From IMG/VR virus record IMGVR_UViG_3300044640_000597, positions 1 through 64,000 of that record: a stretch of 64,000 bases of DNA. One strand, given 5' to 3'. The notes below the pieces were generated by a model, which was not told the origin of the DNA, did not search any database, and was given only the letters and a program-made list of their open reading frames with translations. Positions 18,362 through 37,342 of the stretch are shown one piece after another (the first letter of the stretch is position 1; the number at the start of each line of letters is the position of its first letter). The position numbers were made by a program, and so were the translations under genes. Source of the DNA: a virus.

Positions 18362-21300
18362 TTATACAGTTCCTGGAGGAGCAATAAAGAACTTGAGTGC
18401 ATCCTCAGGATTAGTTGTCTTGTCAATACCTCTGAGGATTGGAGCTATGTCCCTAACTAATTTAGTTAGTTTCAAATCTCCTTTCTCATATGCTCCAGTT
18501 TTTCTTTCATAGTATATTCCATCTTCATCTCTGAATCCTATTCTGTATGGCAGCTCTTTGGTGAATAGGTGGTTAACCAATTCAAGTGAGTTGATTACAG
18601 GTTTTGACAGAGCTGTAGGTGATGCAGCAAATCTGTAGAATTCCATAGGGTTATAGAACTGGCTTAATTCTGACTTTATTCGAAGAGCCTGATAAGCTGC
18701 AAATGCTGCTGCATAATCATCATCGTCATCGTCCTCCATCATTCCAGCAAGTATTCCCCCAATAGCCGTCATGGTTACAAGCATTCCTAATTCCACAAAT
18801 GTTCTTTTAGCATTTGCTTTTTCCATTGGAGTAAGTACTTGGAATGTGCTTCCAAACTTTAGTCCTGACTTTACTGACTCCGTAGTATATCTTAAGAAGC
18901 TAGTATACATACCTTCTGAGATCCCCTCAACTTCACTGTCTATGTGTATACCATCTCCATATCCAAACCTACGTCTTAAACCTGGTTGGAAATATCTACG
19001 GTACATCAATAGAGCTTTACCATACCATCTTCTATTAATGATTGGATCATCTATAGCAGTCTTAATCTGGTTAGTCTTCTTATACAATCCAGATATTTTG
19101 TTAATCATCTGGATAGGCTTGAAGTTAGCTACCCTAGGATCAATCTTCCATTTCCCTTTATCATCCTTATTAAATACATCATAAAGGTTAGCTTCAGATC
19201 CATCTGCATTTTTGATTACCTCTCCGTTCTTATCTTTAAGCTTGCCCTTATATGTATCAGCAATAGCTAAGCCCCTGGTTACAGCTGTCTCGTGTTCAGC
19301 CATATGCTGCAAGAAGAATAAGCTTTGTGTATCAGCTGCTTTAACAACTCTATTCCCTGTACGTTTATCAGCAAATGACCCAAGCTCGGTACCCAAGAGA
19401 TCAAACTCTTGAATAAACCTTGATAGCTTAGTATCGTTATTATACTTACCTGCATCTGATATACTCTCACCAGACATCAAAGCTTTTGTGTATGCCCCTT
19501 TAGCCCATGAAAGATTCTTAGTGTTGAAGTATTGTCCAGCTACTGCTTCTTCTGCAAGCTTCTCATTATCTATTAAGAACTGGTTAGTAGCTTGAAGAGC
19601 ATTCAATGCAAGAGTATTAAGAGCTGAGAATGTGGCAAGCTTATTTACAATTTTGTTTGCACTAAGAACTCTTCCAAGTACTTCAAATTCTTCTTTTATC
19701 TCCCTCTCCCCAAAGAATTCCTTGTCTATAAATTCTGATAGATGTTGGAATGAGTTAGACGTCCCAGCTTTTCTAGTAGGTCTGTTTACCCCTTGTATTT
19801 TAGCAGCTGCAGATAGAACAGGATTACCATGTACGTTCTCTTCAAGAACTTCTCTTTGTTCTACAAGGTCTCTCATCATAATTACAGAGCCTAATATCTC
19901 AGATTTTCTTCTGAATGTATTAGCCATGCCTGCAAATAAAACTATTGTAGATCCTATGTCTCTACTTACAAATCTTGCATCAGTAGGAGTAATAAAAAAT
20001 ATTGGGACAAGCTTATTACGTTGCTCTCTGTTAGCATTGATTACTGCCCCATAAGAATCATCTGTAGATAAGAAACTAAACTCTCTTTGTACAAAATCTT
20101 TTGAGGACTTAAATACATTATAGTTATCAGACTGTAGTTTCTCTAATCCTTGTGCTTCATTCGATGGTAGGACGTATGATAAAGTATCCCAATCATTCTT
20201 ATGTGGGATCTGTGAACCACAAAACTTTTGATGGTCATGAAACACTTTAAGAAAAGCATTGTAGTATTTAGCAGCAGGAGAGTTGGGATTAGCCATCAAA
20301 GCATCATACTTTGGATTAGCATATTTAGAGTTAGGTCTAACTGCTACTCCCTTGTACTGTTGATTCTTGGCATCATACATTCTAGACTTCTGTTGTAGAA
20401 GGTCCAACCTATGGGCCTCATAACTAGCTAGCAGATCAGGGCTTGATGCTGCATTTTTAATTTTAGTATTAAGATCCTTAATTCTTTTATCAAGACTTGC
20501 TACAGCTTTTAATCCCTCCTCTGTTACAACTGTATTAGCTCTATACCATGCAGCTACTTCTGTAAAGAACTTAGCCCCATCATTACTTTTAGCCCAGTCC
20601 TTATACTCAGTAGTACCGTACTCAGGTTGTTTATACTTAGCTTTCAGATCTTTTTTCATCTGGTACTCAGCATCGTGATACTTAGTCACGTTGTAAGGCT
20701 GTATAAAAGAAAGCAACTCCATAGGCTTTCTTCTTCCAGTCTTCTCATCCCTGATATAGTAGGTATAAGTTTCTAGGACCTCGTCATTAAATGTAGTTGG
20801 ATTTACGTCAGCTCCTTTGTATTCAGCATACTCTCTGTATGCTGGGGCAAGTTCATCAACTACGTCTCTTGTGTCTGATGCAGCTTGGTAAAGTTTGTTC
20901 TTAACTAAAGAAGTAAACAATTGCAAGGATACCTGTGACGAATAGATCAAAGGATCCATGAACATAGAGTACTTACTCTTATCTAACTGTGCATCTCTTA
21001 ATTCTTTAATTAAAGTCTCACGTATAATTTTCTTATTCTGCAGTTGGGATACATTGAGATCAAGGAGACCTTGCTCATACTCGTCTTGAGTAATCTTCTT
21101 ATCCTTTAGATCTGCCTTAAGTTTATAGTATGTATCGTCTTTCTTCAGAGCTATAAGTCTTCTGTTTGTCTTGACGTTATCTATAACTCCCTGCACCTCA
21201 TCATTGATATCTTCATTGTAATATCCAAGAAGCAAATCTACTTGCAGTTCAAGTCCTACTTCTTTGTAGTACTTAGACTGTCTCCCAAGTTTCTTAAGTA

Positions 21301-22789
21301 GATCATCTACTTTTGCCTCCATAGTAGACAGCTTTGTCTCCTGGGCATTGGTAAGTCTTGATGATTCTTTCTTGTCTAAAATTACATCTTGTAGTTTAGC
21401 AGCAATACTATTCTCTCCACCACCAAAGAAATCTTGAATGTTATTCCCAATGTGGTGCAAGCTATTCATCAACTTGAATCTTTCCGACTCATCCATGTTT
21501 TTCAATGTCTGATCAGAAAACTTCAAGATATAATCAATACTTTCTTGATTGAGTTTAACTATCCTTCCCATGTAGTCTACAAAGCCCATAAAGTCTTCTA
21601 CCTTGGATACCTTCTCAAAGGCAGCAAGTTGAGCTTTAATCTGAACCATTATCTCATCACTCTTTACTGGGAGTGACTCAAGTCTCATTAACTGAGCTCT
21701 AAGAGTTTCAGATGTCTTACCTATTAGGTCTTTAAGGTCTTCTACTTTTTTATCAAGAACTTTACTATCGTATTCCTCATCTGTCAATACCCCTGTAAAT
21801 TCTCCAGTGTTTAGTCTTTTACTGAATAGCTTATCCAGAAGAGATTCTACTGCATCGTCTGTTATTCCGAAGAAATTCTTTATGGCTCGTATAAACTTAT
21901 TGACTGCAGTTTGGATCTTTGACTTACCCTTCTGTCTTTTAGCACCTGCTATCCCCATAGCTGTTATGAGTGTCTCTTTAAGTAATGCTTGAGGATTCAT
22001 GTCCTCTCCATACTTAAGTGCTACTTGTTCATACAGGTCAGTGTCCTTAACCATATTCATGGCTTGCTTAACCAAAGGGTTATCCTCACCAAGCAAGTCT
22101 ATAAGGATATGACTGAATTCATGGATGTGGGTATCCTCAGTCATAAGCAATGGGTTGAGGATTATAGTAGCTGTGTTGTCACTTTTAGTTATAGCCCTCC
22201 CTTTAGAGGTAATGGTATCATCATACTCAACATTAATTATAATACCAGCCGCAGCAAATGTGTCTGAAAGGTGTTTAACCTGTTCTGATATACCAGGTAC
22301 AGATACAAATGGAACATTCTTTCTTTCTACTGGCTTGTATAAAATAGGCTCTTCTACTGCAACCCTTGCTACAGGCATGCTTTTGAAAGCATCTTTGATA
22401 TCAGCATCTGATACTCTTTGTATATACACCTCCTTAGCAGAAGTCTGTATTGGGGAAAAGAAGTTGTCATTGATAGTAAGTCTGAACGTGTTGTTCCCTA
22501 CTCTTTTAGCTGTAAGGAACTTGTCAGCCACACCATTAGGCTTGAAGTATCTTGCAATTGTATTGTTTAGAGTATTTATAATATGCTTAGGGTCTTTTAA
22601 ATTACCCTTAGTTATAAGTTCTCCTTGACTGTCCACTGTAAAGTGTTCAGGGAAACCATCAAGCAGGTTATACTTCAAAGCTTTTTCTTTCTTTGGGGTA
22701 TCCTGTTCCAGAGTATCAAAAAGCATTTGATATCTTAGTGATGCTTCTGGATGATTATCGTCTGTAAATTCAAATACTCTACAAGCCAT
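18362..22789 (-). CDS. Large virion cargo/ejection protein with zincin-like HExxH domain
   Basis: 1475 aa; HEFSH (22109-22123); hydrophobic segment near the C-terminus; follows the RNAP as in crAss-like phages. Confidence 0.8.
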   Translation of the reverse strand: MACRVFEFTDDNHPEASLRYQMLFDTLEQDTPKKEKALKYNLLDGFPEHFTVDSQGELITKGNLKDPKHIINTLNNTIARYFKPNGVADKFLTAKRVGNNTFRLTINDNFFSPIQTSAKEVYIQRVSDADIKDAFKSMPVARVAVEEPILYKPVERKNVPFVSVPGISEQVKHLSDTFAAAGIIINVEYDDTITSKGRAITKSDNTATIILNPLLMTEDTHIHEFSHILIDLLGEDNPLVKQAMNMVKDTDLYEQVALKYGEDMNPQALLKETLITAMGIAGAKRQKGKSKIQTAVNKFIRAIKNFFGITDDAVESLLDKLFSKRLNTGEFTGVLTDEEYDSKVLDKKVEDLKDLIGKTSETLRAQLMRLESLPVKSDEIMVQIKAQLAAFEKVSKVEDFMGFVDYMGRIVKLNQESIDYILKFSDQTLKNMDESERFKLMNSLHHIGNNIQDFFGGGENSIAAKLQDVILDKKESSRLTNAQETKLSTMEAKVDDLLKKLGRQSKYYKEVGLELQVDLLLGYYNEDINDEVQGVIDNVKTNRRLIALKKDDTYYKLKADLKDKKITQDEYEQGLLDLNVSQLQNKKIIRETLIKELRDAQLDKSKYSMFMDPLIYSSQVSLQLFTSLVKNKLYQAASDTRDVVDELAPAYREYAEYKGADVNPTTFNDEVLETYTYYIRDEKTGRRKPMELLSFIQPYNVTKYHDAEYQMKKDLKAKYKQPEYGTTEYKDWAKSNDGAKFFTEVAAWYRANTVVTEEGLKAVASLDKRIKDLNTKIKNAASSPDLLASYEAHRLDLLQQKSRMYDAKNQQYKGVAVRPNSKYANPKYDALMANPNSPAAKYYNAFLKVFHDHQKFCGSQIPHKNDWDTLSYVLPSNEAQGLEKLQSDNYNVFKSSKDFVQREFSFLSTDDSYGAVINANREQRNKLVPIFFITPTDARFVSRDIGSTIVLFAGMANTFRRKSEILGSVIMMRDLVEQREVLEENVHGNPVLSAAAKIQGVNRPTRKAGTSNSFQHLSEFIDKEFFGEREIKEEFEVLGRVLSANKIVNKLATFSALNTLALNALQATNQFLIDNEKLAEEAVAGQYFNTKNLSWAKGAYTKALMSGESISDAGKYNNDTKLSRFIQEFDLLGTELGSFADKRTGNRVVKAADTQSLFFLQHMAEHETAVTRGLAIADTYKGKLKDKNGEVIKNADGSEANLYDVFNKDDKGKWKIDPRVANFKPIQMINKISGLYKKTNQIKTAIDDPIINRRWYGKALLMYRRYFQPGLRRRFGYGDGIHIDSEVEGISEGMYTSFLRYTTESVKSGLKFGSTFQVLTPMEKANAKRTFVELGMLVTMTAIGGILAGMMEDDDDDDYAAAFAAYQALRIKSELSQFYNPMEFYRFAASPTALSKPVINSLELVNHLFTKELPYRIGFRDEDGIYYERKTGAYEKGDLKLTKLVRDIAPILRGIDKTTNPEDALKFFIAPPGTV

Positions 22790-22800
22790 TGATTTCTATT

Positions 22801-25800
22801 TTATAACATACAAATTTGTGTAACATCTGATTGGGCAACCTTCGTAGAAGTTGCATCGTAATAAGCTTGAAGCATGCTCATTATGTTATTAGCATTCTCA
22901 GTACTATCCCCAAATGTTCTCTTGTTTAACCAGTCTCCCCCAACGATATGCTTCTTATTGTTAGTGGTTCCGAACATGCTCAAATATACGGTTTTATCCG
23001 TAGTCTCTGTAGGGTTAGCTTTAACATAAACACCAGACTCCCCTTTTGAAGTTCGGAATACCATTACACCAGGAGCTTCTTGATTACCCCCGAACTTCTT
23101 ATTAGATATTTTGTGTACCTTTTCTAGTTTAGTATACTCTGGTCCGAGTGAGTGTCTTTGGAGAAGGTTTCTTCCTCCTGGACGAATCTCTCCATACACT
23201 CTAAAGAATCTAGCTAAGTCCTCAGCATCAAAGTATTTACCTGTCTGCATCTTAGCAGACTCTCCGTGCATGTAATCAGCTACACTTATTGGCTTCAAAG
23301 TCTTACCAGTTATAGCTGTGTTTACTTCTCTGCTCATAGGGTTAAGCCAGAACTGAGGAGGGATCATAGACACATAGTTAAATGCAGACTTTCTAAATCC
23401 ATTAGAGATCAAAGCATGCATGCATAAGTCGAATCCTATCTGTCTAATCTTTTCTACATTCTTCTTATACTCCTCCAGATTGTCTGTCTTCTTTACATAA
23501 GCCTCTGGTTTGTATAGAAGGTTATGTAAGTCATCTTGAATTCTAGACTTTTCCTCTCTTGAGAACTGTTGAGTAGCATCGAAGTTAAAAGTCTTGAAGT
23601 TTTTAAACTTACTGTTATTCTCATCTTCAGTAAGCTTCATCAAGAACTCGTTACCTGTTAGGTTACCAAACTTTGATGCAGCCTCTTCAATCCTTTTCCA
23701 CAATGTAAGAGCAGGTTTACCCTTCTTAGTCTTTGGATCTATAGTAGCAGGATCTATATAACCTGGCTTGTACAATCTCTCACTGTACTCTACATTCATG
23801 TACTGTGCTATAGGAGATTCTTCTTTAGTTAGGATAGTAAACATGATAGCAGCATTTACGTCTCTGTGATGATCCGTAGTCATAGCATCAAGACTAGCAG
23901 CTGTTCTGATTGCTTCTTTAAACTTAAGAGAAGACTCAGATGTAGTCATAGGGAATAGAACACTGGATACCCCAGCCATCTCACTTAGCAGATTGTCATA
24001 TCCTCTTTCAAATCCATAAATAGAATTCTCATCAAAGAATTGAGTAAGTACGTTCTCATCTTTACCTCTTCCGTAGAATGCTATCGGGGCATTGTTTAAT
24101 TTACCACCTTTTGGATTGTCAAACTTTTTCTTCTTTCCCATATGCTCCTGAATTGCTTCAAGTCGGTTGATACCAGAGGTTGTATCTGGAGAGATAAGTC
24201 TGAATGCTTCTTTGAGTTGGCTACCTGCAGTGTACATCTTAAGGAAGTTTTGCAAAGCTCTTTCTTTATTGACAGTTAATGTCATTATAGATTGACGAGT
24301 CATTGCAGTTGTTTCAGAAATGTTCTTGTAGTTAGTAGGAAGGTCTTCACTACCCAATGTAATTCCGTTCTTATCAGCTACTTCTTTATAAGCTTCATTA
24401 ATCTTAGACAGGTCATCATTGAACTTGATAGCCATTGTATCTACAAAGTCTCTGATGATAGGCTGATTAAGGAAGTGATGTAGAAGCTCTGTATCCCCAT
24501 AGTATTGTATCCACAAAAGTTCTACAGGGAAAGTAACTGCATTATCATTTACTATATAATGGTACGGAGCTTTAGTAGCATCCACAGCTGCGTTAAGATA
24601 ACGAGACATTATTTTATCTGTAGGTTCTCCAGCATCATATGCGAATCCACTAGATGCAGGAATTATTTCTTGCATCTTAGTGTTAATCATCTCCCCTGCA
24701 ATCTTAACTGCAAACTCAGATTTAAGATTAAAGTTATCAGATACAGTAGCAATGTTTCTTCCAGCAAGTGCATTTGCCCATAGACCTCTCATCTTGTTTC
24801 CAAGCATGTTTCTAACAGCACTGGTAGTTTCATACATACCACCTGTAAACACTTTGCTTGGGGCCAACTCTCTATTCAATTCAATTATAGAAGTTCTTAT
24901 ATTTTTAAGTACTTCGTTATCCAAAGGTCTAAGTGTTTCTAAGTAATGCTCAGGAGAAGAGAACACAGCCTCGATTGTATCAAGTACAATATTGGTCAAC
25001 TCCTTATCAGATATCTTAGATACATCTTTAGTTTTAGCAAGAGTTTTATAATCAGGTCTTACTTTAGTACCATCCTCGTTTAGCTCAGGGAATAACAGGA
25101 ACATTTTATCTACGTCAAAGTCAGATCCCATAAGCTTTACAAGCTGTGGGGGAACTACTATTGCCTTTTCGTATCCAGCAGGAAGTACAGATTTAATCTT
25201 GAAGATAATGGTAGATGCTTTATCCTGGTTAGGGATACGGTAACCAATGATTCTTCTGAGTTCTTCTGGGATGTTATTAGCATCTAAGTCTGCACCTGGT
25301 TCGATTCCAAACTTTCTAAGTACATCCTCTCTGATCATGATCTCAGCATGAGCTAGTCTAGTACCTCTCCTTTTATTTGTAGGATGGTCCACAACCTCAA
25401 GGAATTTCAAAGAACGATCTACTTCGAATCCACCTAGAGCTGCAGTTTGTACAGCTTCGTACCCTGGTACATATTGTTTAAATACTCTGTTGTTATATAC
25501 ACTAAGCAATGCACTTTGGAAAGCAGTACCGTATACAGGGAAGTCCATTGGTATTGCGAACCTAGCAATACCAGTAACAGGATCAATAGTTATATCAAGA
25601 GCCTTAATGAAGTTATCACTTAACTCTCTTTCTATAGCCTGCTCCTCAATTAGGTTTCTGATATTCTTAAGTAGTCTGGCTTTTGCTTCTTTAAATTCTT
25701 GAGCACCTTTTATAGAGTCAACATTTGGTTTCTCAGACTTAAGTTTGTTTACTACCTTTCTGAATTCTGACAATCCAATCTCATTATTTACACTCTCGAG

Positions 25801-28800
25801 GTCTCTTCTGAGTCTCTCTTCGATAGCAGCATGGTAAAGAGCAGTCATGTCTGCCCCAGGAATAGCCGTCTCTCCAGCTATACCTGCATTATAGTAGTAT
25901 AATTCAGTAGACTTTACGTTAGCAATAGCATTCTTTTTAATCTGTCTTCCTAATATAGTCTCTGAATATTCTTTTGCTGCTGGAACAGTCTGTGGGAAAC
26001 CGAGAGCTGATGTAGAGTTTCTATTGATTTTTACATTTCTAAAGAAGCCTCCTTGAATACGAGACCACCCTTTCATATTAAATACATTTAACTGGACACC
26101 CTTCTTAGCAGATACGGCACTAGCTGTGTGTATCTTTTTCATTCCTGCATAAGGATTGTTTGCTTCATTAGGGTTGGCTTCCATCCTCATCCTCATATCA
26201 TCCATTACAGGGAATGCTTTAGTATACGACTTAAGCAATGGGAAGTAAGCTGTCTTAGTAAGGTCTACAGCAACAGTTCCTCCTATAGATTTAACTTCTT
26301 GTCCAAATGGTTTATAAGGTCTGATAGGGATATCCTGTCCAACCTTTGCTCCTCTTGGAAGATCTTTTACACCAGCAGGATATACAAACTTTCCTTCTGG
26401 ATCGTTTTTATAATTATTGTATGCTACCTCATGGTATTGAAACCATTCTCCTTCTCCCTGCATGATTTCCCTAAGCCAATCGATGGATATCAAAGTCAAA
26501 CCATCGTGCTCTTCAAAGCTACCTGCTTTGTACTCATCAGTGAATGCTGCTTCAGCTGCTGTGTATCCTGACTTAAGCAACATTTCTTTTGTACGATTGG
26601 CCCAATTGTTCATCTCTGTTGCTATGGCTGCAGTAACCTGACCCATAGGATCATCGAATACCATCTCGTTATATTCAGAGATAGCTCCATAACGCTCATC
26701 CATCCAAGGCACATAATTCCCTAATCCATCCTTTTTAGCTAGTGTGTTCTTTTCAGCAAGCTTAGTACGAGGAGTAGTCAGAAGTCTTTGACGTTTAGTA
26801 AAATCTTCAATGTTTTTAAACAAAGCTCTGTTACCTCTAGTCAGTTTAATGATTTCATTTCTCCCTAAGTCTTCATGTATAAGGAAGTCTTTAAGCAAAG
26901 GAATCATAGCCTGTACAAAAGGAGAGTTGCCTTGCTCGTCTTTCTTTCTTTTAGACAAATCTACCCCTGCGATATCAGCCCACTTCTTAAGCAGTTTAGA
27001 ATTTACATCATTCTTTCTGTCTGCCTCTTCTATTGTAGCAGCCATCTGCTTAGCTTGACCAGTGTAAAATAAAGACAGCCCACTAATCATTTCTGTAAGT
27101 TCATTTCTAAACTGCTGCAGCTCTTGAGATAATGGAAGATTGCTTTTTGTTTTTCTAATAAACTCTTCTGCAAGGTCAGACATTCTCATAACCCCTATAC
27201 TAGAGTTAATAGCTCTGTCTGTTACAATTCTGTTCCCTAGTTCATCTATACCATCAAACTGCATGAACTCATCACTTAGGCCTCTCATCTGACCAGTATG
27301 GTAATCTGGGATAAGAGTAACATTAGGATCTTCTTTAGATGCAGCTATTGTAGCCCTAGCTTGTTTGATTCTTAAAAGGTCTTGTAGGATTGCATCTCTA
27401 AATACATCACTAACACCGTTCTTCTTATTGAACTTAGTATCAAAGTGACCTTTAATCCTAGGCATAAGCATCATATCAAAACGAGCTCTATCTGCCTGAG
27501 CAGGTACAGCTACGTAATAATATTTCTCATTAAAGTTATTATTGTAGATCTCAAGTCTTGTTAGTACAGAGTCTACATTATTGAAGTCTTCATAATCCAA
27601 AGCATCATCTCCGTAGTCTCTGATACCTGCCAGTGGGGATGTCTTAAAGTCCCTTAGGAATTCTTCATTCTGTGTAAGATGGAAGAACAGATGACTAGGC
27701 ATCATGTCAGGTGGGAAGATAAACTTATCCTTTCTGTACAGAGGTAATGCCTGCTCTTTGTTTGCAGTTACATCCTTTCTAATTTGGAAAGGAAGTTCAG
27801 AAAGAGTTGTAGCCATATTAACAGGATACATTGCTGACCCTGTAGGAGTTACAAAGCTTTCAGCTACTCTGCTAGTAAACAATGGAGCTAAGCCTGCAAG
27901 GAACTTCATACCTTGCTTTTCTGTGTTGAAGTATAAAACTGGTTTTTCTTTTTTACTTTCTATACCTACCCCTTCTCTGCTAGTACTTACATTTGCTATA
28001 GCTTCAACCATTTTAGATAACCTAGCTCTTTCAAAGATTGCATCAAAAGCTTCTTTTCCTATAACAGTATGGTTTTTTACTTTACCAGCTTCGGTCTTAC
28101 TTATCTTGAAACCTTTGTTGATCAGATTCTGGACATTAATTATAGTGTCCATTTGATTCACATTGCTACCAAAGTTAAACCCTAGCTCCCATATGAGACT
28201 CCCTAATGCCCATGCAGGAGAATCTATGACAGGTTCTTTATTAAAGAACTCTGCATTTGGATCTTCATTAGGTTTAAACTGCATCCTATTGAAGCCGTAG
28301 GCTTTTTTAAAAGCCTCTTTAATTTTATTAAACTTAGCAGTCTTAACAACAAAGCCTGAAGCTTCGTCATCTTCTTCTGATAGTGTCTTTGCAAATACAG
28401 CTCTACTTGATCCTTCCTCTCCTTCTTCCTGACCATTGATTTCAACCATCTGCCCAGTCCACTGTTTAACAGCTTTCTGTTCAGTTGTAGAACTATTAGC
28501 ATTAAGTACCTTACCCTGACTCCCCAGAATTGCCATGTTAAACTCTGCTAGAGTTTGAGCAAATGTTTTATACAACAAGGCTCTCTCATTACCAGGCATA
28601 CTCATTATACGTTGGTTAATGGAAGAGTAGTCTGGTCTATACTTAGAAGCCTCTATAAGCTTCTCTTCCATCTCCTGAAAAGAACCTACGTCTGCCCATA
28701 ACTCTGAGAGTTGTTTGTAGACATACCTTAAAGACCAGTACTCTGTCTGATCAGTAAAAATGTCATTAGTTACTTGCTTGTATATTATTTTTTTATTGGC

Positions 28801-30294
28801 TTTATCAAAAGTTGCTTCTACTTTAGGTATGCGTCTTAGAATTGCTTTGGCTTTCTCAGATACTTTAGTCATTGGGGAATCGGCAAAGTGACTTCTTCCC
28901 TTGATATCTTTATCCTCTACCCCAGATTCCATTGCTTCGATCATATCAGCTTCTGCATCCCCTTCTTCATTTGTAGAAGCAATACTATCTTTTACAATGT
29001 TGTATTGATTAGCACGTAGCTCATCAACAATCATTTGCTTCCAAGATGGGACGGTAGTATTCCCTGTGGCAGAATCTTTCTTACCATTCCAGTTTAATAC
29101 TACGTGCTTAATGAGTTTACGTTTATTGTTGAGAGTAGCTGCTAGTGCTTTATCTCTAGGGGATGCATCTGTAGCAACTTTCCTAAAGTTATTAAGAGTG
29201 AATCCTTTGCTCTCCCTATAATCTGTAAAGTCTTTTAGTAATTTCTCTACCTCTGGTTTAAATGCAGCTGCTTCTTTCTTATTAGTTTTGAGTAATGCTG
29301 TGTACTTACGAGTAGCATTCTCAAACAATATCTCCATAGTAAGACCCTTCATAAATATAGGGATATCTTTCTTGGGATCCATAGGTCTCTTATCCAGGTA
29401 TTTATATATTTGATACAGCAGCCCATTAACTACTTTACCTCTTGTATTCTTTGTACCTAGAATCTCTCCTACCAGTGGTGTCTCCCATGCATCAATTTCA
29501 TTGATAACCATGTTAGTCAATCCCTCTACCATCTTATCTACAGTAGCACTAGGTATACCTTCTACAAGTCTGCTAGGATTGTAGGAGCTTTGCATAGCCT
29601 CTGGGTTTCTAAATACCCCTCTGCCTAGGAAAGTCTCATTAGACTTTGTGGTCTCCATAAGAGAATAGACATCTCTCAATCCAATCTTGTTAGAGATCAA
29701 ACCTTTTATCCAGCTAAACAAATCTCTAAACCACTTGGCAATGCTAGCTACTATTCCTCTGCTGCTCTCTTCTTCTGTAAGCATGTGCTCCATGAAACCG
29801 TCAGCCATCTTTTCTTCCAGCACCAAGTTGCTAGCCTCTTCATCTCCGATAGCTATATTGTACAGGTCTACTACTTCTTTCTTAATCTTTTCGATTTCTG
29901 CAGTAGTGGGTTTACCAAATTCTTTAGCTGCATCTTTGTACAAGGACTGACGTTGCTCCTCAGACAGCATTGTTCTGAACAGCAAGTGGTAAGCTTCGTG
30001 GTATTCAGTACCAGTTTCAGCCGATGTCCACATATTGATTGCCCCATTCTCAACGTATCCATGCTGAGTCTTATTCCCAATCTCTTTGGCAAAATCATAG
30101 AAGACCGTTTCCTTTCCAGGAAACAACTTTGACAAATAAGCTGTAGCTTTTTCCTGCCTATCGTTTGTTTTAGGATAGTAGTACTTACTAGGAACTTCTC
30201 CTTTGTACTTATTCCATAATTTATAGGCTCTTTCAGGTTGAGCTTCTTCTAGTGACTTCCATTCAGGAAGAGATTTATTTGGGCAAAATGTCAT
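22801..30294 (-). CDS. Virion-packaged single-chain RNA polymerase (phi14:2 gp66-like) with N-terminal zincin-like domain
   Basis: Catalytic GSDFDVDK (25108-25122), GYRIPNQ, SAKKG, AVDATK; HEAYH (29986-30000). Confidence 0.93.
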   Translation of the reverse strand: MTFCPNKSLPEWKSLEEAQPERAYKLWNKYKGEVPSKYYYPKTNDRQEKATAYLSKLFPGKETVFYDFAKEIGNKTQHGYVENGAINMWTSAETGTEYHEAYHLLFRTMLSEEQRQSLYKDAAKEFGKPTTAEIEKIKKEVVDLYNIAIGDEEASNLVLEEKMADGFMEHMLTEEESSRGIVASIAKWFRDLFSWIKGLISNKIGLRDVYSLMETTKSNETFLGRGVFRNPEAMQSSYNPSRLVEGIPSATVDKMVEGLTNMVINEIDAWETPLVGEILGTKNTRGKVVNGLLYQIYKYLDKRPMDPKKDIPIFMKGLTMEILFENATRKYTALLKTNKKEAAAFKPEVEKLLKDFTDYRESKGFTLNNFRKVATDASPRDKALAATLNNKRKLIKHVVLNWNGKKDSATGNTTVPSWKQMIVDELRANQYNIVKDSIASTNEEGDAEADMIEAMESGVEDKDIKGRSHFADSPMTKVSEKAKAILRRIPKVEATFDKANKKIIYKQVTNDIFTDQTEYWSLRYVYKQLSELWADVGSFQEMEEKLIEASKYRPDYSSINQRIMSMPGNERALLYKTFAQTLAEFNMAILGSQGKVLNANSSTTEQKAVKQWTGQMVEINGQEEGEEGSSRAVFAKTLSEEDDEASGFVVKTAKFNKIKEAFKKAYGFNRMQFKPNEDPNAEFFNKEPVIDSPAWALGSLIWELGFNFGSNVNQMDTIINVQNLINKGFKISKTEAGKVKNHTVIGKEAFDAIFERARLSKMVEAIANVSTSREGVGIESKKEKPVLYFNTEKQGMKFLAGLAPLFTSRVAESFVTPTGSAMYPVNMATTLSELPFQIRKDVTANKEQALPLYRKDKFIFPPDMMPSHLFFHLTQNEEFLRDFKTSPLAGIRDYGDDALDYEDFNNVDSVLTRLEIYNNNFNEKYYYVAVPAQADRARFDMMLMPRIKGHFDTKFNKKNGVSDVFRDAILQDLLRIKQARATIAASKEDPNVTLIPDYHTGQMRGLSDEFMQFDGIDELGNRIVTDRAINSSIGVMRMSDLAEEFIRKTKSNLPLSQELQQFRNELTEMISGLSLFYTGQAKQMAATIEEADRKNDVNSKLLKKWADIAGVDLSKRKKDEQGNSPFVQAMIPLLKDFLIHEDLGRNEIIKLTRGNRALFKNIEDFTKRQRLLTTPRTKLAEKNTLAKKDGLGNYVPWMDERYGAISEYNEMVFDDPMGQVTAAIATEMNNWANRTKEMLLKSGYTAAEAAFTDEYKAGSFEEHDGLTLISIDWLREIMQGEGEWFQYHEVAYNNYKNDPEGKFVYPAGVKDLPRGAKVGQDIPIRPYKPFGQEVKSIGGTVAVDLTKTAYFPLLKSYTKAFPVMDDMRMRMEANPNEANNPYAGMKKIHTASAVSAKKGVQLNVFNMKGWSRIQGGFFRNVKINRNSTSALGFPQTVPAAKEYSETILGRQIKKNAIANVKSTELYYYNAGIAGETAIPGADMTALYHAAIEERLRRDLESVNNEIGLSEFRKVVNKLKSEKPNVDSIKGAQEFKEAKARLLKNIRNLIEEQAIERELSDNFIKALDITIDPVTGIARFAIPMDFPVYGTAFQSALLSVYNNRVFKQYVPGYEAVQTAALGGFEVDRSLKFLEVVDHPTNKRRGTRLAHAEIMIREDVLRKFGIEPGADLDANNIPEELRRIIGYRIPNQDKASTIIFKIKSVLPAGYEKAIVVPPQLVKLMGSDFDVDKMFLLFPELNEDGTKVRPDYKTLAKTKDVSKISDKELTNIVLDTIEAVFSSPEHYLETLRPLDNEVLKNIRTSIIELNRELAPSKVFTGGMYETTSAVRNMLGNKMRGLWANALAGRNIATVSDNFNLKSEFAVKIAGEMINTKMQEIIPASSGFAYDAGEPTDKIMSRYLNAAVDATKAPYHYIVNDNAVTFPVELLWIQYYGDTELLHHFLNQPIIRDFVDTMAIKFNDDLSKINEAYKEVADKNGITLGSEDLPTNYKNISETTAMTRQSIMTLTVNKERALQNFLKMYTAGSQLKEAFRLISPDTTSGINRLEAIQEHMGKKKKFDNPKGGKLNNAPIAFYGRGKDENVLTQFFDENSIYGFERGYDNLLSEMAGVSSVLFPMTTSESSLKFKEAIRTAASLDAMTTDHHRDVNAAIMFTILTKEESPIAQYMNVEYSERLYKPGYIDPATIDPKTKKGKPALTLWKRIEEAASKFGNLTGNEFLMKLTEDENNSKFKNFKTFNFDATQQFSREEKSRIQDDLHNLLYKPEAYVKKTDNLEEYKKNVEKIRQIGFDLCMHALISNGFRKSAFNYVSMIPPQFWLNPMSREVNTAITGKTLKPISVADYMHGESAKMQTGKYFDAEDLARFFRVYGEIRPGGRNLLQRHSLGPEYTKLEKVHKISNKKFGGNQEAPGVMVFRTSKGESGVYVKANPTETTDKTVYLSMFGTTNNKKHIVGGDWLNKRTFGDSTENANNIMSMLQAYYDATSTKVAQSDVTQICML

Positions 30295-30307
30295 TGTCTG
30301 TATTTTA

Positions 30308-33300
30308 TTAACAAATTCCTTCTAGCACATTGTTCTGCAGCTTGTCAGATTCTTCTTCTGTGAGGGTGATGCCGAATGTATCTTTTACTATTTGTATAAA
30401 CATTGTGTCATCCATTCCTCCAGATTTAGTAATAGACTTTTTAAGGTCTGCTAATTGTTTATCTACCCCAGCTGCTGGCCCACCTTTAGATTCTCCAGCA
30501 TTTAATAAGTCAGATGCTAAAGATTCTTTAGTTACCTTACCCTGTTTCTTAACTCCTTTTTCTTCCTTATCAACTTCTTTACCTTTAGGGGCTGCGGATT
30601 TAGTAGTAGCTTTTGTGCTAGCTTTTTTCTTACCAGCATTATTAATGCTTGGATCTGAGCTGCTAACTGTTTTTTTCAGCTCGAAAGATACTTCACCTTT
30701 TAGCAACTCTTTAATATTATAACTAAGAGTGAATTTTTTCTCAGCCATTCCTGATACTTTTTCTATGTATCCCTCCGTGTTATAACGTATAGGAAGGTAC
30801 AGTACACTTGCTCCAGCTATGTTAGCAGGCTTAAGTTTACCTACACCAACCAAAGAGTAAGCATACATACTAAGTTGAGTACCATGCTGATCTCTTTTAC
30901 TTTTAGATACTTTTTTAGTCTGAGGATCAGTGTACCCTTTCTCATAGTTAGCAAGTCCACCTTCTGACCCAGTCTTAATATCGTAGATATAATACTGTGG
31001 GCCTACCCCTTGCTTATCCTTTCTCTTAACCAAGATGTCGAACTTGCCTGCATAGTCCCCATAGCTATCAGTATAAACGATCATCTCTGTAGCAATAACT
31101 GTCTCTCCTTTTGATTTAATCAATCTACGGATATCTCCTATTTGGTTGATCAATTCAAGGAATGCCACACGAGACATCTTATCCCCACGAGTATAATCTG
31201 TCTTCCCCATAAGAACAGATTCTACAATATCATGTACTGTATTACCTGCTCTGCTTGATGCTTGTTTTACTTCCTTAGTTCCATTAAATGGTTCAGAAGA
31301 TATACTTGTAATTCTTTGGAACTTCTTAGGTTCAGTCTCTCCCTTAGGCTGTATCTTATAGTGAGTTTCTTCTTTTGTAGCGGGATCTTCAAACATCCCC
31401 TTAAACTCATTCTCTTTGATGTCGATAAGTCTGTTGACCAGGGGATCGTTCAATCCTCTGTCTTCCTCATCCATTTCAGCTACCTTTGGCTCTTCAAACT
31501 CATCCTCTTCTTTTTTCTCTTGAGTCTTTGTCCCTCTTGACTTTGCTAAATCTTCAAAGCTTGTAGTAGAACCAGTTGTTTCATCTTGTGGGGTTTCCTC
31601 AATTGTATCCCCCATCATAGTGTCAAACAAGTTCTCATCAACTTGTTCCTGGTCGTCATCATCATTAGAGTGCTCATCACTCTCTTCAAACTCTTTAGGG
31701 TCAAGCTTAGCTTTAGCAGACTGAGGAGAAGCTGTTGAGTTATTATCATATAAAGGTTTTCCTTCTACGAGCAGTGGACCATAAGTAATTCCTACGTCAA
31801 AGTATGGGCTCCCATCTTGGTTAAGGAACATATCAGATCCAAGTATGCCTGTATGTGACTGTCCATCAGAATCTATATCAGGAATAGCATTTGGGTCAGC
31901 AAGGTATTCAGTATAGCTATTATACATCTTACCCTTGCCAGTTTCAGGATCTATATAAGGAGATTCAAATGCTTGATTACTTTGTAAGTTAGCTGCAGAT
32001 ACCTGATGTCTTCTTTGAAGAACAGCTTTCTCAAATGCATCTACAACTCCATTGTATACTTCTTTTATTTTATACAGTCCTTTTTTATCAGGATCTGGAT
32101 TAAAGTCTACCCCACCCTTTTCACCTATTTCTGCTTTAACAAATGAGAATTCAAATGTTTGGTTTGATAAAGCTTTGGCTAATTCAGCACTGCTTATACG
32201 TATGTAACTTTCAGCTTGAGGATGGTAAAAGGTATAAACATTTGTTATTGTTGTGTCACCGTTAACGTCTGTTCTTTCTAATGCATCTGAAAAGAGCATG
32301 TCAGTTTTCTCAAGGTTAACTGCTGCTTTAGCAACCTTATTAAAACCTATGAGCTCATTAAGCATCCCTGACCTACCTTGTAAGATAGCAAGTTTTGCAG
32401 CCTCTAGTCCACCTTTAGTTATTCTTTTAGTAGTTAGGAATAGATGTCTGAATCCTCCTATCGGAGTTCTTACAAGCATTGCTACTTTACCCAGCTCACT
32501 ATCGTAAGAAGTTATAGTAGGGATTACATCTTTTTCTGTAATATTATCCCCTACTAATGCTAATTGAAATCTAGGGAGACCACTTTCTCTTTCAATAGAC
32601 GATATCATAAGGGTAGGCATAGCCCCATCCTTAAATGGATTATAGAAGAATGGCTCTCCGTCTACAGTTACAGCATTTGCAATATTCTCAGTATTATATC
32701 TCTTACCTGCTATCGTGCTAGTTACCCTTTTACCCTTTAAGAAGTTTTCATATATATCCTTACGACTCTGGTTAAACTCAGTTTCTTTGTTAGGGTTAAA
32801 ACTTTCCAGTAACCCAACTCTCTTGTACTTACCATTAGCTTGCTTAATTGCAACAAATATTGGAACTGTTTTCCAATGATCACCTGCAGGAATTCCATCT
32901 TTATTTTCGTTCCAGAACTTAGTGTCTGTACGAACGTCAAAGAAAATTTCAGTATCATTAGGAGATAACAAACTAGATGATAAAAGCTCTGGGAATATTT
33001 TTATCAGATCCCCATTACTATCAAGTTGTTTTATTCCTAATTTAGATCCAGGTTGCCCTTTAGGGATACCATTACCATAGTAATCCTCATTGATAAGAGG
33101 AGTGCCATCTGAAGATACAATTACGTTATCAAAGTTGTCAGTAGTTCTGTATTCGTTCTTAACTAATCTGGCATCAATTTCTCCAGCATACTCAGCAGTA
33201 TTAGCTTTCTCCTCTTCTACTGTTTCTTTTGGAGTTTCTGGGGTGAAGCTATCCTCATCTTCATACTCCTCCTCTTCTTCCTCTTCTGCTGCCTGATAGT

Positions 33301-36300
33301 CAACCTGAATGGTTGTATCATCTGTACCTGTATCCTCATTCATGAAGTCACTACCTGCAAGACTGTTAAGAATTGCTTCTTCGTCTCCAGGCTCTCCTTC
33401 CATGTTGAGGTCTAGTTCTTCTGCTGAAGATACTTCAGTAGCTCCTTCACTCTGTCCTTGACCTCCTTGTTCCTCATTAGATCCCGTAGGTTCTTGGGCA
33501 TTTTGTACATCTTGATCAATTGAATCTGATTTTCTAGCTTCATCTAGTTGTTGTAGTTTAGTTATTTGATCTTGAATAAGTCCCTGCTCTGTTTTGGCAA
33601 GTCTAAGATTCTCTATATATCTTTTTATCAGGTTAGCAGCTGTAGGATTAGTCTCTGCCTCAGCTTGAAAGTGCTTCAATAATCTCTCATATCTTTTTAT
33701 TGTGGATTCTAAAGTGTCGAAATTTGCTTTAAGCTTTCCAATTTCACTAGCAAAGTCAACTCCTTCCTGTCTATTTACTTCTCCAGGCTTAGCATTAGGA
33801 TCTCCCTCAGTAGGTATCTTCTCTAGCTCCCGATACATCCTTTGAATCTCTTCTAGCTTCTTGGTATACTCTTCATGTAGCTCTCTAGCATCAATATAGT
33901 TTTGTAACTTATAGAGAGCTGTAAATTTTATATTACTTCTTTTGTAAGCTTGCTCTAGAATTGTTCTAACTTGTGAGAGCCCATCAAGAAACTTCTGGAG
34001 TTCTTTAGCAGCAATCATGTATATCTGAGGAGTAGGCTCTATTCCCTCTAGATCAATTCTATTATCTAAAATTTCCTTCCCCTTCTTTAATACATTAAGG
34101 ATATCAGCAGCTCTACTTTCACTTTCTTCTAGACTAAGATTTATTGTATCAGCTGTTGCTTCAGCTACATACCCAATCATCATTATCTCTGCAAGCTCAT
34201 CTACTAACTGAGGATTATCTTCAGCCTTAAACTTGACAACTTGCCCAGCTTCATTAGTAAGAGTAATAGATACTACGGGTACTTTTCCATCAGGTGTAAG
34301 CTGAGTCATGTCTGCCTGAATAGCATCCATAATGTTTACCTTATTATTTTTATAAGGTATACCATTTACTATAAGGTTTCTGTTATCACTTGTAGTAACT
34401 CTGATGTTATTGACATAAGTCTTCCCGTTAGGAGTGTTAGTATCAGAGCCCTTCATGTTATTGATAGATGCTTCAGCATCTGCCTTAGCCTTCTTCTGCT
34501 CTTCAGTAGGAGTACTGTTAACTCTAGCTTCTTTATCAGCTGTTGTCTCTCCTGCTCTGTCTGCTATAACTCGTAATAGAGCTGCAGCTTTTTGTGGATC
34601 TGCATCTTTAATCTCATCGATGCCTGCTATCAAATCTTTTAAATGTGCATCAGTAAGTATGTTAAAGTTCTCTGCATACTTATCTTCTACTTCCTTAAGC
34701 TCTTGATACTTCTTCAAAAGCTTTTCACGTAACTCAGGACTTAGAGAGTCATTGTTTATGAAGTGCTCAAGATCCAAAGTTGATCTAGCTTCATCTATTG
34801 TTACAGATGCTTCTTTGTTATCGTTTGTAATCTTGGCTTCTGCTTGAGCACTCTGTCTAGCAAGCATTTCGATATCCCTTCTCTCTGGGGATGTAACCAG
34901 TTCTTCAAATGCAGCAATAGATTCCTCTCTCATTTGAAGTCCAGTAAACAAGTTCTGCAACTCGTTATTAAACTTCATTTTATCTATAGGGTTAAGAGTG
35001 TCAGCATACCTGATGGCTTTCTCCATCCTGCTGATCATCTTATTATCATCATCATCTTCCTTTTTCTTTCTCTGTCCTTCAGGAGATTGCTCTTCAGCTT
35101 TAGCTTTAGCCTTTGCCTCTTCTGATGCAGTATCACTAAGTGTAGTACTTACTACAGATCTTGGGAATTGAATCTCTCCTGTTGGGGACACAGTAATCTT
35201 ATTCTTTTTTACAAGAGCAAGAAGGTCGTCTTTATTAATATTAGCAAAAGAGTCTGGTCCTTCTGGGGAAAGTCTTCTGAGCTCATCTATACTTTTATTG
35301 ATTTCCTCATCTCGAGTATCAATGCTAACCATATGACCCATAAGAATATTCTTAAGTCTCTGGTTATATAGTCTGTGTGTAGCATCAGCCTGCTTTCTTT
35401 CTTTACCCTGCAGCAGACCTGGTAATCCTGATTTGTTAGGATTAACTTGCTGTACAATATCATCTAAGTCTTTACTTAATTTAGATGCTTTTTTGTATTC
35501 TTCTCTGAGGTCTTGAATTACCTGCACATGGCTCTTACCTCCACTTTGCTCAGAGAATGTACTCTTTAGTGTTCCATCCTGTGTCTTTGTAGTATCATAG
35601 CCAGTACGTTTCATGAACTCTTCTTCTGACATCTTTTCAAGATCGTCGAATTCTTCAAGTCCAAGATCCTCTGCATCTAATCTCTGCAGTTTGTTTGCTC
35701 TTTGAGCAATCAACTGTTTTCTTAATTCATTAGCAAGTTTATAGTTACCAACGTCATTAGCAGCTGCAATTGCTGCCCCAGTACGTAGTATCTCCTGATT
35801 CATTTCTGCATCTGCAGCTAGATTCATGAATGTAGGACTGTTCTTAATAGCTAATAACTGTTCAGTATTAGCTGCCATGTTCTTTCTCTTAGAAGCTTCT
35901 GCCCCGAACGTAGTACTAGTAGCCCCCATACCACCACCAATGAGTGCTCCTAGAAGCATGCTTTCCATACCATCAGCACTTCCAAAGGTTTCACTCATCC
36001 CCTTACTGAAAGCTTGTATAAAGTCTCCACTTCCAGTATCAAACTTATTCTTAAAGTACTCACCTGCCCCAACACCAATTGCATACTGTGCTCCTTCCTG
36101 GAATGATTCATTAAGAGCATTCTTGTATATCGGACTGGTAAACTTATTAACCTTTTGAAGAGTTTTGCCAAATGCTGTATTAGGGGTTTTAAGAATGTAC
36201 TTACCTTCTTTCTTAACTATATCTTCTGTGAGATCCTCCCCAATTTTAAATCCTGCAAGTTTCTTTGATCCACCGATCATGCTCGCAAACGTGAACAAGT

Positions 36301-37342
36301 TTGTAGGCATGAGTATCCCCATATTAAGAGCAAACGTAGAATTCTCTACAGCCCTTGCACTGCTTAGGATTGCTTCCCTTTCTTCAGAAGTCATGTCCTG
36401 TTGAACAGACTTACCAGGATTATCTTCCTCCCACTCGTCAAATTTCTCTTGTATGAATTGCTTTGACTTCTCTCTAGCTTCCACAGATGACTCAGCAAGA
36501 GACATCATAGCTCCTACTTCAAGGTGTTTAACAGCATTAAGACCCCTAGCTATTTTAGCAGTTCTAGAAACATCATCAGCCAGCTTAGTTCCAGTCTTAA
36601 TCATCTTAGAAGCTTCATATATCTTCTTAAGCTTTTCACCTGTTGTTGCTACTTTAGCTACTGATGCTGCCTCCCCCATAGTGGCAATACCTTTGCCAGC
36701 TGCACCTATTCCCTTTGCTATCAGTCCCTCTCCACCAGTTAGCCACACAGTTGCAAGAGAACCTAATGAATATCCTAATCCATTAGCAAACTTATCAGTC
36801 CAGAAGTTAGCTGTCCCTAAAGATGCAAGGACACTACGGTCTGGATCCATTTCTTTCTGAGTGTAGTAGTGTGGAAGGTTTTCAGCCATCCACTCATTCA
36901 TCTCATCTACCGATCTACCTACAGCATTGTCTGCATATGTACCACCAGTAGCTAGAGATGCTAAGCCAGATACTACCCCAATGGTATTCTCTGCAATAGC
37001 ACCACCCATTGTGGTTCCCATTTTGAGAAGTCCTCTGCCTATCTTCTCTCCAACACCTTGGTTCTTTGCACGGATCTCATTCCAGTCTTCACCAAATGGA
37101 TTATAGCCTATATCATAGTTAGCATAATTTGCAAGAGAATCGCTATATCTATTAGTAACATTTATTGTACTAGAGGCCTGCTCCAGTCCAGACATAAATT
37201 TGTCTGGGGCAACTTTATATTCTAGAGGCTTCCCAGCATTAATCTGAGCTTGCTTGATATAAGGATTATCAGAATCTACAGCTTCTTTAGTAAGACCTGA
37301 GTTTTTAGCAATCTGTGCTAGGTATGGGTTTTCTTCAGCCAT
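30308..37342 (-). CDS. Giant virion cargo protein with N-terminal membrane segments and C-terminal PD-(D/E)xK nuclease domain
   Basis: 2344 aa; Gly-rich hydrophobic helices; GNTVH...TE...AGKFDIL...YDIKTG...QLSMYA. Confidence 0.82.
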   Translation of the reverse strand: MAEENPYLAQIAKNSGLTKEAVDSDNPYIKQAQINAGKPLEYKVAPDKFMSGLEQASSTINVTNRYSDSLANYANYDIGYNPFGEDWNEIRAKNQGVGEKIGRGLLKMGTTMGGAIAENTIGVVSGLASLATGGTYADNAVGRSVDEMNEWMAENLPHYYTQKEMDPDRSVLASLGTANFWTDKFANGLGYSLGSLATVWLTGGEGLIAKGIGAAGKGIATMGEAASVAKVATTGEKLKKIYEASKMIKTGTKLADDVSRTAKIARGLNAVKHLEVGAMMSLAESSVEAREKSKQFIQEKFDEWEEDNPGKSVQQDMTSEEREAILSSARAVENSTFALNMGILMPTNLFTFASMIGGSKKLAGFKIGEDLTEDIVKKEGKYILKTPNTAFGKTLQKVNKFTSPIYKNALNESFQEGAQYAIGVGAGEYFKNKFDTGSGDFIQAFSKGMSETFGSADGMESMLLGALIGGGMGATSTTFGAEASKRKNMAANTEQLLAIKNSPTFMNLAADAEMNQEILRTGAAIAAANDVGNYKLANELRKQLIAQRANKLQRLDAEDLGLEEFDDLEKMSEEEFMKRTGYDTTKTQDGTLKSTFSEQSGGKSHVQVIQDLREEYKKASKLSKDLDDIVQQVNPNKSGLPGLLQGKERKQADATHRLYNQRLKNILMGHMVSIDTRDEEINKSIDELRRLSPEGPDSFANINKDDLLALVKKNKITVSPTGEIQFPRSVVSTTLSDTASEEAKAKAKAEEQSPEGQRKKKEDDDDNKMISRMEKAIRYADTLNPIDKMKFNNELQNLFTGLQMREESIAAFEELVTSPERRDIEMLARQSAQAEAKITNDNKEASVTIDEARSTLDLEHFINNDSLSPELREKLLKKYQELKEVEDKYAENFNILTDAHLKDLIAGIDEIKDADPQKAAALLRVIADRAGETTADKEARVNSTPTEEQKKAKADAEASINNMKGSDTNTPNGKTYVNNIRVTTSDNRNLIVNGIPYKNNKVNIMDAIQADMTQLTPDGKVPVVSITLTNEAGQVVKFKAEDNPQLVDELAEIMMIGYVAEATADTINLSLEESESRAADILNVLKKGKEILDNRIDLEGIEPTPQIYMIAAKELQKFLDGLSQVRTILEQAYKRSNIKFTALYKLQNYIDARELHEEYTKKLEEIQRMYRELEKIPTEGDPNAKPGEVNRQEGVDFASEIGKLKANFDTLESTIKRYERLLKHFQAEAETNPTAANLIKRYIENLRLAKTEQGLIQDQITKLQQLDEARKSDSIDQDVQNAQEPTGSNEEQGGQGQSEGATEVSSAEELDLNMEGEPGDEEAILNSLAGSDFMNEDTGTDDTTIQVDYQAAEEEEEEEYEDEDSFTPETPKETVEEEKANTAEYAGEIDARLVKNEYRTTDNFDNVIVSSDGTPLINEDYYGNGIPKGQPGSKLGIKQLDSNGDLIKIFPELLSSSLLSPNDTEIFFDVRTDTKFWNENKDGIPAGDHWKTVPIFVAIKQANGKYKRVGLLESFNPNKETEFNQSRKDIYENFLKGKRVTSTIAGKRYNTENIANAVTVDGEPFFYNPFKDGAMPTLMISSIERESGLPRFQLALVGDNITEKDVIPTITSYDSELGKVAMLVRTPIGGFRHLFLTTKRITKGGLEAAKLAILQGRSGMLNELIGFNKVAKAAVNLEKTDMLFSDALERTDVNGDTTITNVYTFYHPQAESYIRISSAELAKALSNQTFEFSFVKAEIGEKGGVDFNPDPDKKGLYKIKEVYNGVVDAFEKAVLQRRHQVSAANLQSNQAFESPYIDPETGKGKMYNSYTEYLADPNAIPDIDSDGQSHTGILGSDMFLNQDGSPYFDVGITYGPLLVEGKPLYDNNSTASPQSAKAKLDPKEFEESDEHSNDDDDQEQVDENLFDTMMGDTIEETPQDETTGSTTSFEDLAKSRGTKTQEKKEEDEFEEPKVAEMDEEDRGLNDPLVNRLIDIKENEFKGMFEDPATKEETHYKIQPKGETEPKKFQRITSISSEPFNGTKEVKQASSRAGNTVHDIVESVLMGKTDYTRGDKMSRVAFLELINQIGDIRRLIKSKGETVIATEMIVYTDSYGDYAGKFDILVKRKDKQGVGPQYYIYDIKTGSEGGLANYEKGYTDPQTKKVSKSKRDQHGTQLSMYAYSLVGVGKLKPANIAGASVLYLPIRYNTEGYIEKVSGMAEKKFTLSYNIKELLKGEVSFELKKTVSSSDPSINNAGKKKASTKATTKSAAPKGKEVDKEEKGVKKQGKVTKESLASDLLNAGESKGGPAAGVDKQLADLKKSITKSGGMDDTMFIQIVKDTFGITLTEEESDKLQNNVLEGIC

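Follow-up and report, generated by a model that had tools for sequence, protein, structure and literature searches.

Facing terminal cysteines at the gene breaks of crAss-like phage cargo proteins suggest a head-to-tail disulfide chain

In the crAss-like phage represented by IMG/VR virus record IMGVR_UViG_3300044640_000597, three giant cargo proteins encoded by consecutive genes carry cysteines (Cys) at the ends that face one another, and comparison across Crassvirales revealed one such Cys pair at each gene break, with two exceptions among 80 loci, and none where the genes are fused. We propose that the three proteins, here designated A, B (the virion RNA polymerase) and C, are probably rejoined at their gene breaks by head-to-tail disulfides (A-S-S-B-S-S-C) that replace peptide bonds, a proposal that draws on sequence comparison and on the analogy with a solved disulfide in a cyanopodophage. 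The window analysed here comprises positions 1 to 64,000 of the record, 64,000 nucleotides in length; the complete record has 85,965 bases and is rated 100% complete. The crAss phages, which no other viruses of the human gut exceed in abundance, deliver ~700 kDa of protein through a narrow tail, and a giant RNA polymerase is part of this load.

Cysteines at the facing ends of the cargo proteins

The module encodes five cargo proteins of 1319, 765, 2344 (A), 2497 (B) and 1475 (C) amino acids (aa), 8,400 aa in total, and their translations contain 6 Cys in all (0, 0, 1, 3 and 2, respectively; Table 1). This share of 0.07% compares with 1.16% (135/11,661) in the other open reading frames (ORFs) of the window. 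Four of the six Cys occupy the facing ends of A, B and C, in an interval (22781-30313) that runs from the Cys3 codon of C to the terminal Cys codon of A, and the outer ends of the trio carry none. An earlier note, made from the sequence of the window alone, had reported 6 Cys in 8400 aa, four of them at facing termini, with bare outer ends of the trio and Cys-free 765- and 1319-aa proteins; translation confirmed all of these counts, and the Cys pattern of the window cargo is real. In relatives, the counterparts of the 765- and 1319-aa proteins are Cys-free too. The single Cys of A closes a tail in which ~100 variable residues are followed by a short conserved segment ending in Cys; the mean top-residue frequency is 0.39 at residues 2231-2330, versus 0.59-0.65 in the folded parts of A.

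Table 1. Features of the cargo module in the window, and arrangements of the A, B and C genes with altered gene breaks in related loci
Feature	Window position or locus	Strand	Remarks
Protein A, gp47-like giant cargo protein	30308..37342	minus	2344 aa; blastp against crAss001 gp47, E 1e-20
Protein B, gp50-like virion RNA polymerase	22801..30294	minus	2497 aa; homologous to crAss001 gp50 (blastp)
Protein C, gp49-like	18362..22789	minus	1475 aa; blastp against crAss001 gp49, E 2e-29
765-aa protein	37363-39660	minus	0 Cys; outside the Cys chain
1319-aa protein	39666-43625	minus	0 Cys; outside the Cys chain
Cys2344 of A, sole Cys and last residue (...LEGIC)	30311..30313	minus	TGT codon; invariant in alignments A3 and A4
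Cys4 of B (MTFCPN)	30283..30285	minus	among the 22 invariant columns of 19 B homologues
Cys2495 of B (...QICML)	22810..22812	minus	invariant column in alignment A2
Cys3 of C (MACRV)	22781..22783	minus	from translation
Internal Cys2291 of B (FDLCMHA)	23422..23424	minus	semi-conserved, near relatives only
Internal Cys857 of C (QKFCGSQ)	20219..20221	minus	semi-conserved, near relatives only
C-terminal tail of A, ~residues 2225-2343	30314..30670	minus	K/S/G/T-rich, poorly conserved
HEAYH (HExxH, zincin-like), B residues 99-103	29986..30000	minus	invariant in alignment A1; just inside the A/B break
Catalytic DFDVD of B (D1725, D1727, D1729)	25108..25122	minus	invariant among 19 B proteins (alignment A2)
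A+B+C fused, 5,005-5,639 aa	L025, L026, L029, L031, L032, L039		0 Cys
B+C fused, 5'-truncated	L022, L028, L033, L041		no Cys
AB / C	L018, L024, L027, L046, L055		Cys at the C-terminus of the 3,743-4,528-aa AB and at residue 3-4 of C; none else
A / BC	L060, L065		Cys at the A C-terminus and at residue 3-5 of BC; none at the BC end
Additional break	L084, L010		additional Cys pair

All four terminal Cys are kept in six IMG/VR relatives (63-65% identity), in which the internal Cys vary and the residues before the Cys of A differ (..EGIC, ..KKNC, ..KENC). More distant loci showed an unchanged terminal pattern, which was then counted in sets of database homologues (110 for B, 35 for A and 55 for C). 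All 35 A proteins have a Cys within the last 0-4 residues, 33/35 have no further Cys and 0/35 have an N-terminal one, and the internal Cys density of A is 0.0025%. For B, a Cys lies in the first 10 residues of 94/110 homologues and in the last 10 of 108/110, and 38/110 have no Cys between the two terminal 10-residue windows; the B proteins that lack an N-terminal Cys are mostly fragments, or fusions extended far beyond the usual N-terminus. Among the C homologues, 51/55 carry a Cys within the first 10 residues, at residue 3-6, and 0/55 within the last 10. Across the three families, the internal density of 0.003-0.06% contrasts with ~10% per position in the terminal windows. The positional enrichment that the earlier note had proposed to compute across Crassvirales is more than 100-fold.

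At greater distance, an alignment of 19 B proteins (17-49% identity) contains 22 invariant columns, which are the RNA polymerase core residues (the catalytic DxDxD included) together with C4 and C2495. The rule also holds in crAss001, which belongs to another family: the only Cys of its gp47 (2341 aa) is residue 2339, the only Cys of its gp49 is residue 5, and its gp50 (2412 aa) carries Cys5 and Cys2404. The gp47 gene of crAss001 lies on the strand opposite to gp50 and gp49, and the Cys codons at termini are both TGT and TGC, which together remove explanations at the level of DNA. An account by chance, mis-called starts or junction sequence constraints would have the tight spacing of the A, B and C genes (gaps of 11-13 nucleotides) in its favour and nothing else, and its probability is practically negligible: with uniform placement, P is ~8e-9 for four of six Cys falling within 4 residues of any of the 10 termini in the window alone, the pattern is kept in ~200 homologues and 80 loci, and neither the opposite strand of gp47, nor variation in the residues before the Cys, nor the choice of Cys codon alters it. 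Conservation in relatives rules out chance, start-codon and junction-sequence artefacts.

Two further features of these cysteines were noted. The internal Cys2291 of B and Cys857 of C are present together in the window and in loci L001 and L002, and both are absent from L003; in general, loci with more internal Cys in B tend to have more in C as well, which could indicate a second pair or a lineage-wide relaxation. The N-terminal Cys is followed by Pro-Asn (xxCPN; window 30277-30285) in 16/91 non-redundant N-terminal Cys, and this motif is also found at L009, L010, L037, L055, L058, L064 and L083; it is carried by B in the clade of the window and by a C-like protein elsewhere, as if it were a portable plug.

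Cysteine pairs and gene breaks

Related loci were collected by the catalytic pattern GSD[FY]D[VI]DK, chosen because an earlier pattern, MTFCPNK, itself selects for Cys. The best 80 of 493 relatives were kept, and their ORFs were mapped with the A, B and C profiles, ten gut loci being read with TAG as Gln. Throughout this census, the number of Cys pairs per locus equals the number of gene breaks per locus, the exceptions being L054 and L091 (see below). Split junctions have Cys on both sides in 58/58 cases, in 58 B-core clusters (<90% identity), at 0-9 residues from the upstream C-terminus and at position 3-7 of the downstream protein. In A+B fusions the inner Cys pair is absent, and the remaining arrangements, from fully fused polyproteins to loci with an additional break, are listed in Table 1. 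On a FastTree phylogeny of B cores, from which L007 was left out, A and B switched between split and fused at least 6 times, and B and C at least 5 times (at least 11 fusion-state changes), and Cys are absent with fusion in all independent contrasts (all 5+4 on well-supported branches, all 6+5 overall).

The census and the tree bear directly on the suggestion of the earlier note that junction Cys might disappear where genes are fused: they are absent wherever this has happened, and they are present at the new termini made by splits. At these junctions evolution has exchanged peptide bonds and Cys pairs for one another, so the likeliest role of a pair is to restore the covalent continuity of the chain. 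The comparison supports a coupling of A to B and of B to C by the facing Cys, so that the trio would behave like one polyprotein. If true, this would explain the free fusing and splitting of the cargo genes.

The position of the break itself moves, and the Cys track the actual termini, not homologous columns. Short forms of A, which end at A-profile position ~1875, still have their Cys at the terminus, and forms of B without the zincin domain still have an N-terminal Cys. The A/B break falls before the zincin domain in the window and after it in crAss001, with Cys at the actual break in both. In crAss001-like phages a zincin-like domain stands at the C-terminal end of gp47 (L012:16500-16800). 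The zincin domain always adjoins the A/B break; it is kept in fused polyproteins and is absent from the B forms P0065, P0068, P0072 and P0075.

Could each terminal Cys instead act alone, in homodimers (A-A, C-C), in attachment elsewhere in the virion, in lipidation or another modification, or in catalysis or ligation to a peptide bond? The C-P-N motif, which recurs on B in the clade of the window and, in other lineages, on C, could be the mark of a recognition site. Independent roles are nevertheless highly improbable: they leave unexplained both the joint absence of the two junction Cys in every fusion and the bare outer ends, neither A nor B matches a Pfam domain at E<=0.01, intein and HINT included, and the Cys at position 3-7 is preceded by no signal peptide.

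Several specific candidates were also rejected. A split intein with trans-splicing is contradicted by the absence of a Pfam HINT match at E<=0.01 and by Cys that lie 0-9 residues from the ends, leaving no room for intein halves. A lipoprotein or signal-peptide Cys does not fit residue 3-7 without a signal peptide, and a C-terminal prenylation box does not fit a spacing to the end that varies from 0 to 9 residues. A general rule of fusion by readthrough or frameshifting fails at L001, where A and B are in different frames.

Codon reassignment affects how the module is read in some lineages. In the gut lineages L049-L053, L056, L057, L061, L062, L069 and L076, TAG is a sense codon within the module, with 17-71 in-frame TAG per gene; with TAG read as Gln, the giant ORFs and the terminal-Cys rule return, and as many as 9 internal Cys are tolerated in these lineages. 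At L007:9995-10003, the TAG stop of A is in frame with the ATG of B one codon on, so that TAG readthrough would fuse A and B. For the fused database proteins P0069 and P0068, related loci were not found in IMG/VR.

A proposed disulfide thread and its alternatives

A bond with the same signature has been solved in cyanopodophage A4 (Anabaena phage A-4L), where cryo-electron microscopy resolved a disulfide between gp27 Cys1715 and gp26 Cys5 in the pre-ejectosome (PNAS 2025, PMC12002296). By analogy with this gp27-gp26 bond, the crAss junctions would likewise be closed by disulfides, and a disulfide is the simplest chemistry because each end offers a single thiol without a conserved neighbouring ligand. 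Intermolecular disulfides occur in the tail of crAss001 virions (PMC10172136), an observation that we count as one of feasibility.

We propose the following mechanism. In the particle, each facing Cys pair would form a head-to-tail disulfide. With the bonds at the extreme ends, the linked trio would stay a near-linear thread of 6,316 residues and one polarity, and, with the remaining cargo purged of Cys, wrong bonds or loops could not form. Such a thread could keep A:B:C at 1:1:1 and could be pushed or pulled down the narrow tail with its parts in set order; once inside, the three proteins could be parted by the reducing cytoplasm. The positions of the Cys, their conservation and how strictly they follow gene breaks are shown; the disulfide chemistry, the threading and the release by reduction are inferred.

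The comparative rule demands pairing and is silent on the chemistry, and metal thiolates form readily in the reducing cytoplasm where the particle is built. Both points would suit a coupling of the facing Cys by a bridging metal ion or cluster, as in a zinc hook or clasp, or by a non-covalent docking motif; the earlier note had itself named shared metal sites as an option. We consider this very unlikely, as there is one Cys per terminus with no conserved His, Cys, Asp or Glu beside it (flanks ..EGIC, ..KENC, ..LRCNS, MTFC, MAC and MSKRC), two thiolates make a weak site, and the sole solved case with the same signature, that of phage A4, is a disulfide.

A number of observations weigh against the proposed disulfide chain. 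At L054 (13900-14020), the one clear departure from the rule, an upstream 3068-aa ORF ends in ..YTQC and the downstream ORF has no N-terminal Cys; the latter, of 1410 aa, is the C-terminal half of B and starts within ATGTTAA, overlapping the stop, and the case may reflect a frameshift, an insertion or an assembly error, or else be a genuine exception. At L091 (6578-15453), a crAss001-like locus, the RNA polymerase gene is in two ORFs of 1377 and 1138 aa that lie ~1.3 kb apart and have no junction Cys; the gap resembles an inserted intron or mobile element more than a true split, and the case may also be a frameshift. Gut lineages tolerate 1-21 internal Cys, so that freedom from Cys is not absolute. 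The rows of the tree are very divergent and its branches long, and neither sign test alone reaches p<0.05, the contrasts being too few. A search of the 86-kb genome with PF00085 (thioredoxin fold) gave no match, and a phage-encoded thioredoxin was rejected as a candidate on this ground. Particles are built in the reducing cytoplasm and the gut relatives are anoxic, conditions under which oxidation may or may not occur. The crAss001 map leaves the cargo unresolved (PMC10172136), and direct observation of the bond is confined to phage A4. A complex prediction for the A tail (2150-2343) with the B head (1-330) scored 0.31 versus a mark of 0.32, the fold of the partner itself being uncertain, and we count it neither for nor against binding.

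The bond of phage A4, too, lies inside a folded, symmetric pre-ejectosome and is read there as stabilising, not as a threading device (PMC12002296), and the crAss001 structure paper holds that the order of ejection is probably set by packing and mutual interactions (PMC10172136). Both points would fit a disulfide that serves assembly, fixing a 1:1:1 set in a pre-ejectosome-like body in the head, after which the proteins might exit separately or the bond might break on firing. This alternative bears on the purpose of the link, not on its existence, and we regard it as unlikely: a fused polyprotein of 5,000-5,640 aa must exit in one piece, and its peptide bonds and the Cys pairs can stand in for each other. 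Moreover, the Cys always lie 0-9 residues from the chain ends, which threadability needs and a stabilising bond in a folded body does not.

The head-to-tail chain can be extended to a broader reading, which we put forward tentatively. The junctions may constitute an order-wide, portable covalent splice that makes the cargo one disulfide thread of fixed polarity and order, redox-cut into working enzymes by the host cytoplasm, the same device having arisen independently in phage A4. Evolution could then sever and reconnect an ejected polyprotein of over 5,000 residues nearly anywhere along its length, the RNA polymerase lying mid-thread. An order-wide rule by which Cys pairs mark all gene breaks, and only these, would be a concrete, cheap and falsifiable mechanism for the delivery of the cargo, and the terminal-Cys signature is usable by annotators to find cargo chains in uncultured phages.

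The cargo module and known systems

The module comprises six large minus-strand genes in head-to-tail order, with products of 1896, 1319, 765, 2344 (A), 2497 (B) and 1475 aa (C). Mapping with hidden Markov models agrees with blastp on the homology of A and C to crAss001 gp47 and gp49, and the 1896-aa protein has weak similarity to the crAss001 muzzle protein gp44. For the 765- and 1319-aa proteins, sequence similarity to crAss001 gp45 and gp46 was undetectable, and the gp46 and gp45 places are therefore given to them, respectively, by position alone. In tblastn searches with B, matches were confined to Crassvirales, at <33% identity. A profile of B homologues matches the virion RNA polymerase of phage phi14:2 (PDB 6VR4) with E 1.8e-211, the match spanning residues 121-2193 of the 2194-residue chain; a phmmer search of the PDB with B alone gave no match, 6VR4 included. 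Judged by its sequences, this is the cargo and virion RNA polymerase module of a divergent crAss-like phage, and homology to the crAss001 proteins suggests that A, B and C would be packaged and ejected.

Other searches returned little. Megablast found no match among phage records, PHROGs and Pfam gave almost nothing on the five cargo proteins, and Pfam at E<=0.01 gave no family on A and B, intein/HINT included. Residues 2023-2177 of A (window 30812-31276) have a weak PD-(D/E)XK exonuclease-like match (phrog_298, E 4e-8); PF12705 is precomputed on several A homologues, and this C-terminal part is missing from short A forms and from A+B fusions. Precomputed Pfam annotations also place extra domains on some B and C homologues, namely an AAA_33/Zeta-toxin-like kinase (PF13671, PF06414), LysM (PF01476) and a helicase block (PF13604, PF13245 and others). 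The homologues bearing them (P0049, P0058, P0061, P0067, P0159, P0176, P0178 and P0105/L044) apparently carry added payloads on the chain.

One of the closest known systems is crAss001, whose gp47, gp49 and gp50 were detected in virions by mass spectrometry and are believed to cross the tail partly unfolded (Bayfield et al., Nature 2023, PMC10172136). Its gp47, gp50 and gp49 are homologous to A, B and C and have the same terminal Cys; unlike in the window, gp47 is encoded on the opposite strand and the A/B break comes after the zincin domain. The structure paper names cysteine 0 times (PMC10172136). Gp66 of Cellulophaga phage phi14:2 (PDB 6VR4) is a crAss-like virion RNA polymerase, and B belongs to the same family by profile.

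The ejection proteins of Schitoviridae (N4 gp50; DEV gp71, gp72 and gp73) are Cys-depleted, which has been explained as avoiding unwanted disulfides in transit (PMC11445570). As in the window, a giant virion RNA polymerase is ejected with companions and the proteins are Cys-poor. The schitoviral enzyme, however, is a single protein of ~3,400-3,500 aa with essentially no Cys, whereas the module of the window is split and has a Cys at each internal end. The window cargo is not wholly free of Cys, its terminal Cys being kept and conserved; in crAss loci, complete absence was found only in fully fused polyproteins.

A parallel outside phages is offered by two-chain translocated toxins, in which one interchain disulfide holds the chains together during translocation of the unfolded chain and cytosolic reduction separates them. 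The parallel with the crAss cargo is one of analogy only: the proteins are unrelated, and the toxin chains arise by proteolytic nicking of one precursor.

The nearest likeness in device is that of phage A4. Its gp27 (1717 aa) and gp26 (1114 aa) are encoded by consecutive genes, and a check of the sequences confirmed that Cys1715 and Cys5 are the sole Cys of each. As at the junctions of the window, the Cys sit at facing chain ends, that of gp27 2 residues from the C-terminus and that of gp26 at residue 5, and the A tail with its terminal Cys brings to mind gp27, whose C-terminal helix plugs into gp26. In contrast to the window, there is one link, not two, and no RNA polymerase is involved. Comparison of gp27 and gp26 with A, B and C gave no blastp match better than E 1 and no hmmsearch match at E<=1; with no detectable similarity of sequence, the likeness lies in the device and not in descent.

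The earlier note had proposed that C-to-N links join the three proteins into a pseudo-polyprotein, and had known of no description of such a chain. The coupling of A to B and of B to C is supported by the enrichment and fusion tests, but the idea is not undescribed in general, since the bond of phage A4 was already known (PMC12002296). In the library searched, no paper connects terminal cysteines or disulfides with the cargo proteins of crAss phages, and none gives a general rule. The A4 paper describes one bond, reads it as stabilising and ties no rule to gene splits or fusions (PMC12002296). New here is the terminal-Cys rule of crAss phages tied to gene breaks; one such bond was already known in phage A4. 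Set beside this rule, the single disulfide of phage A4 may point to a general principle for podophage ejection proteins.

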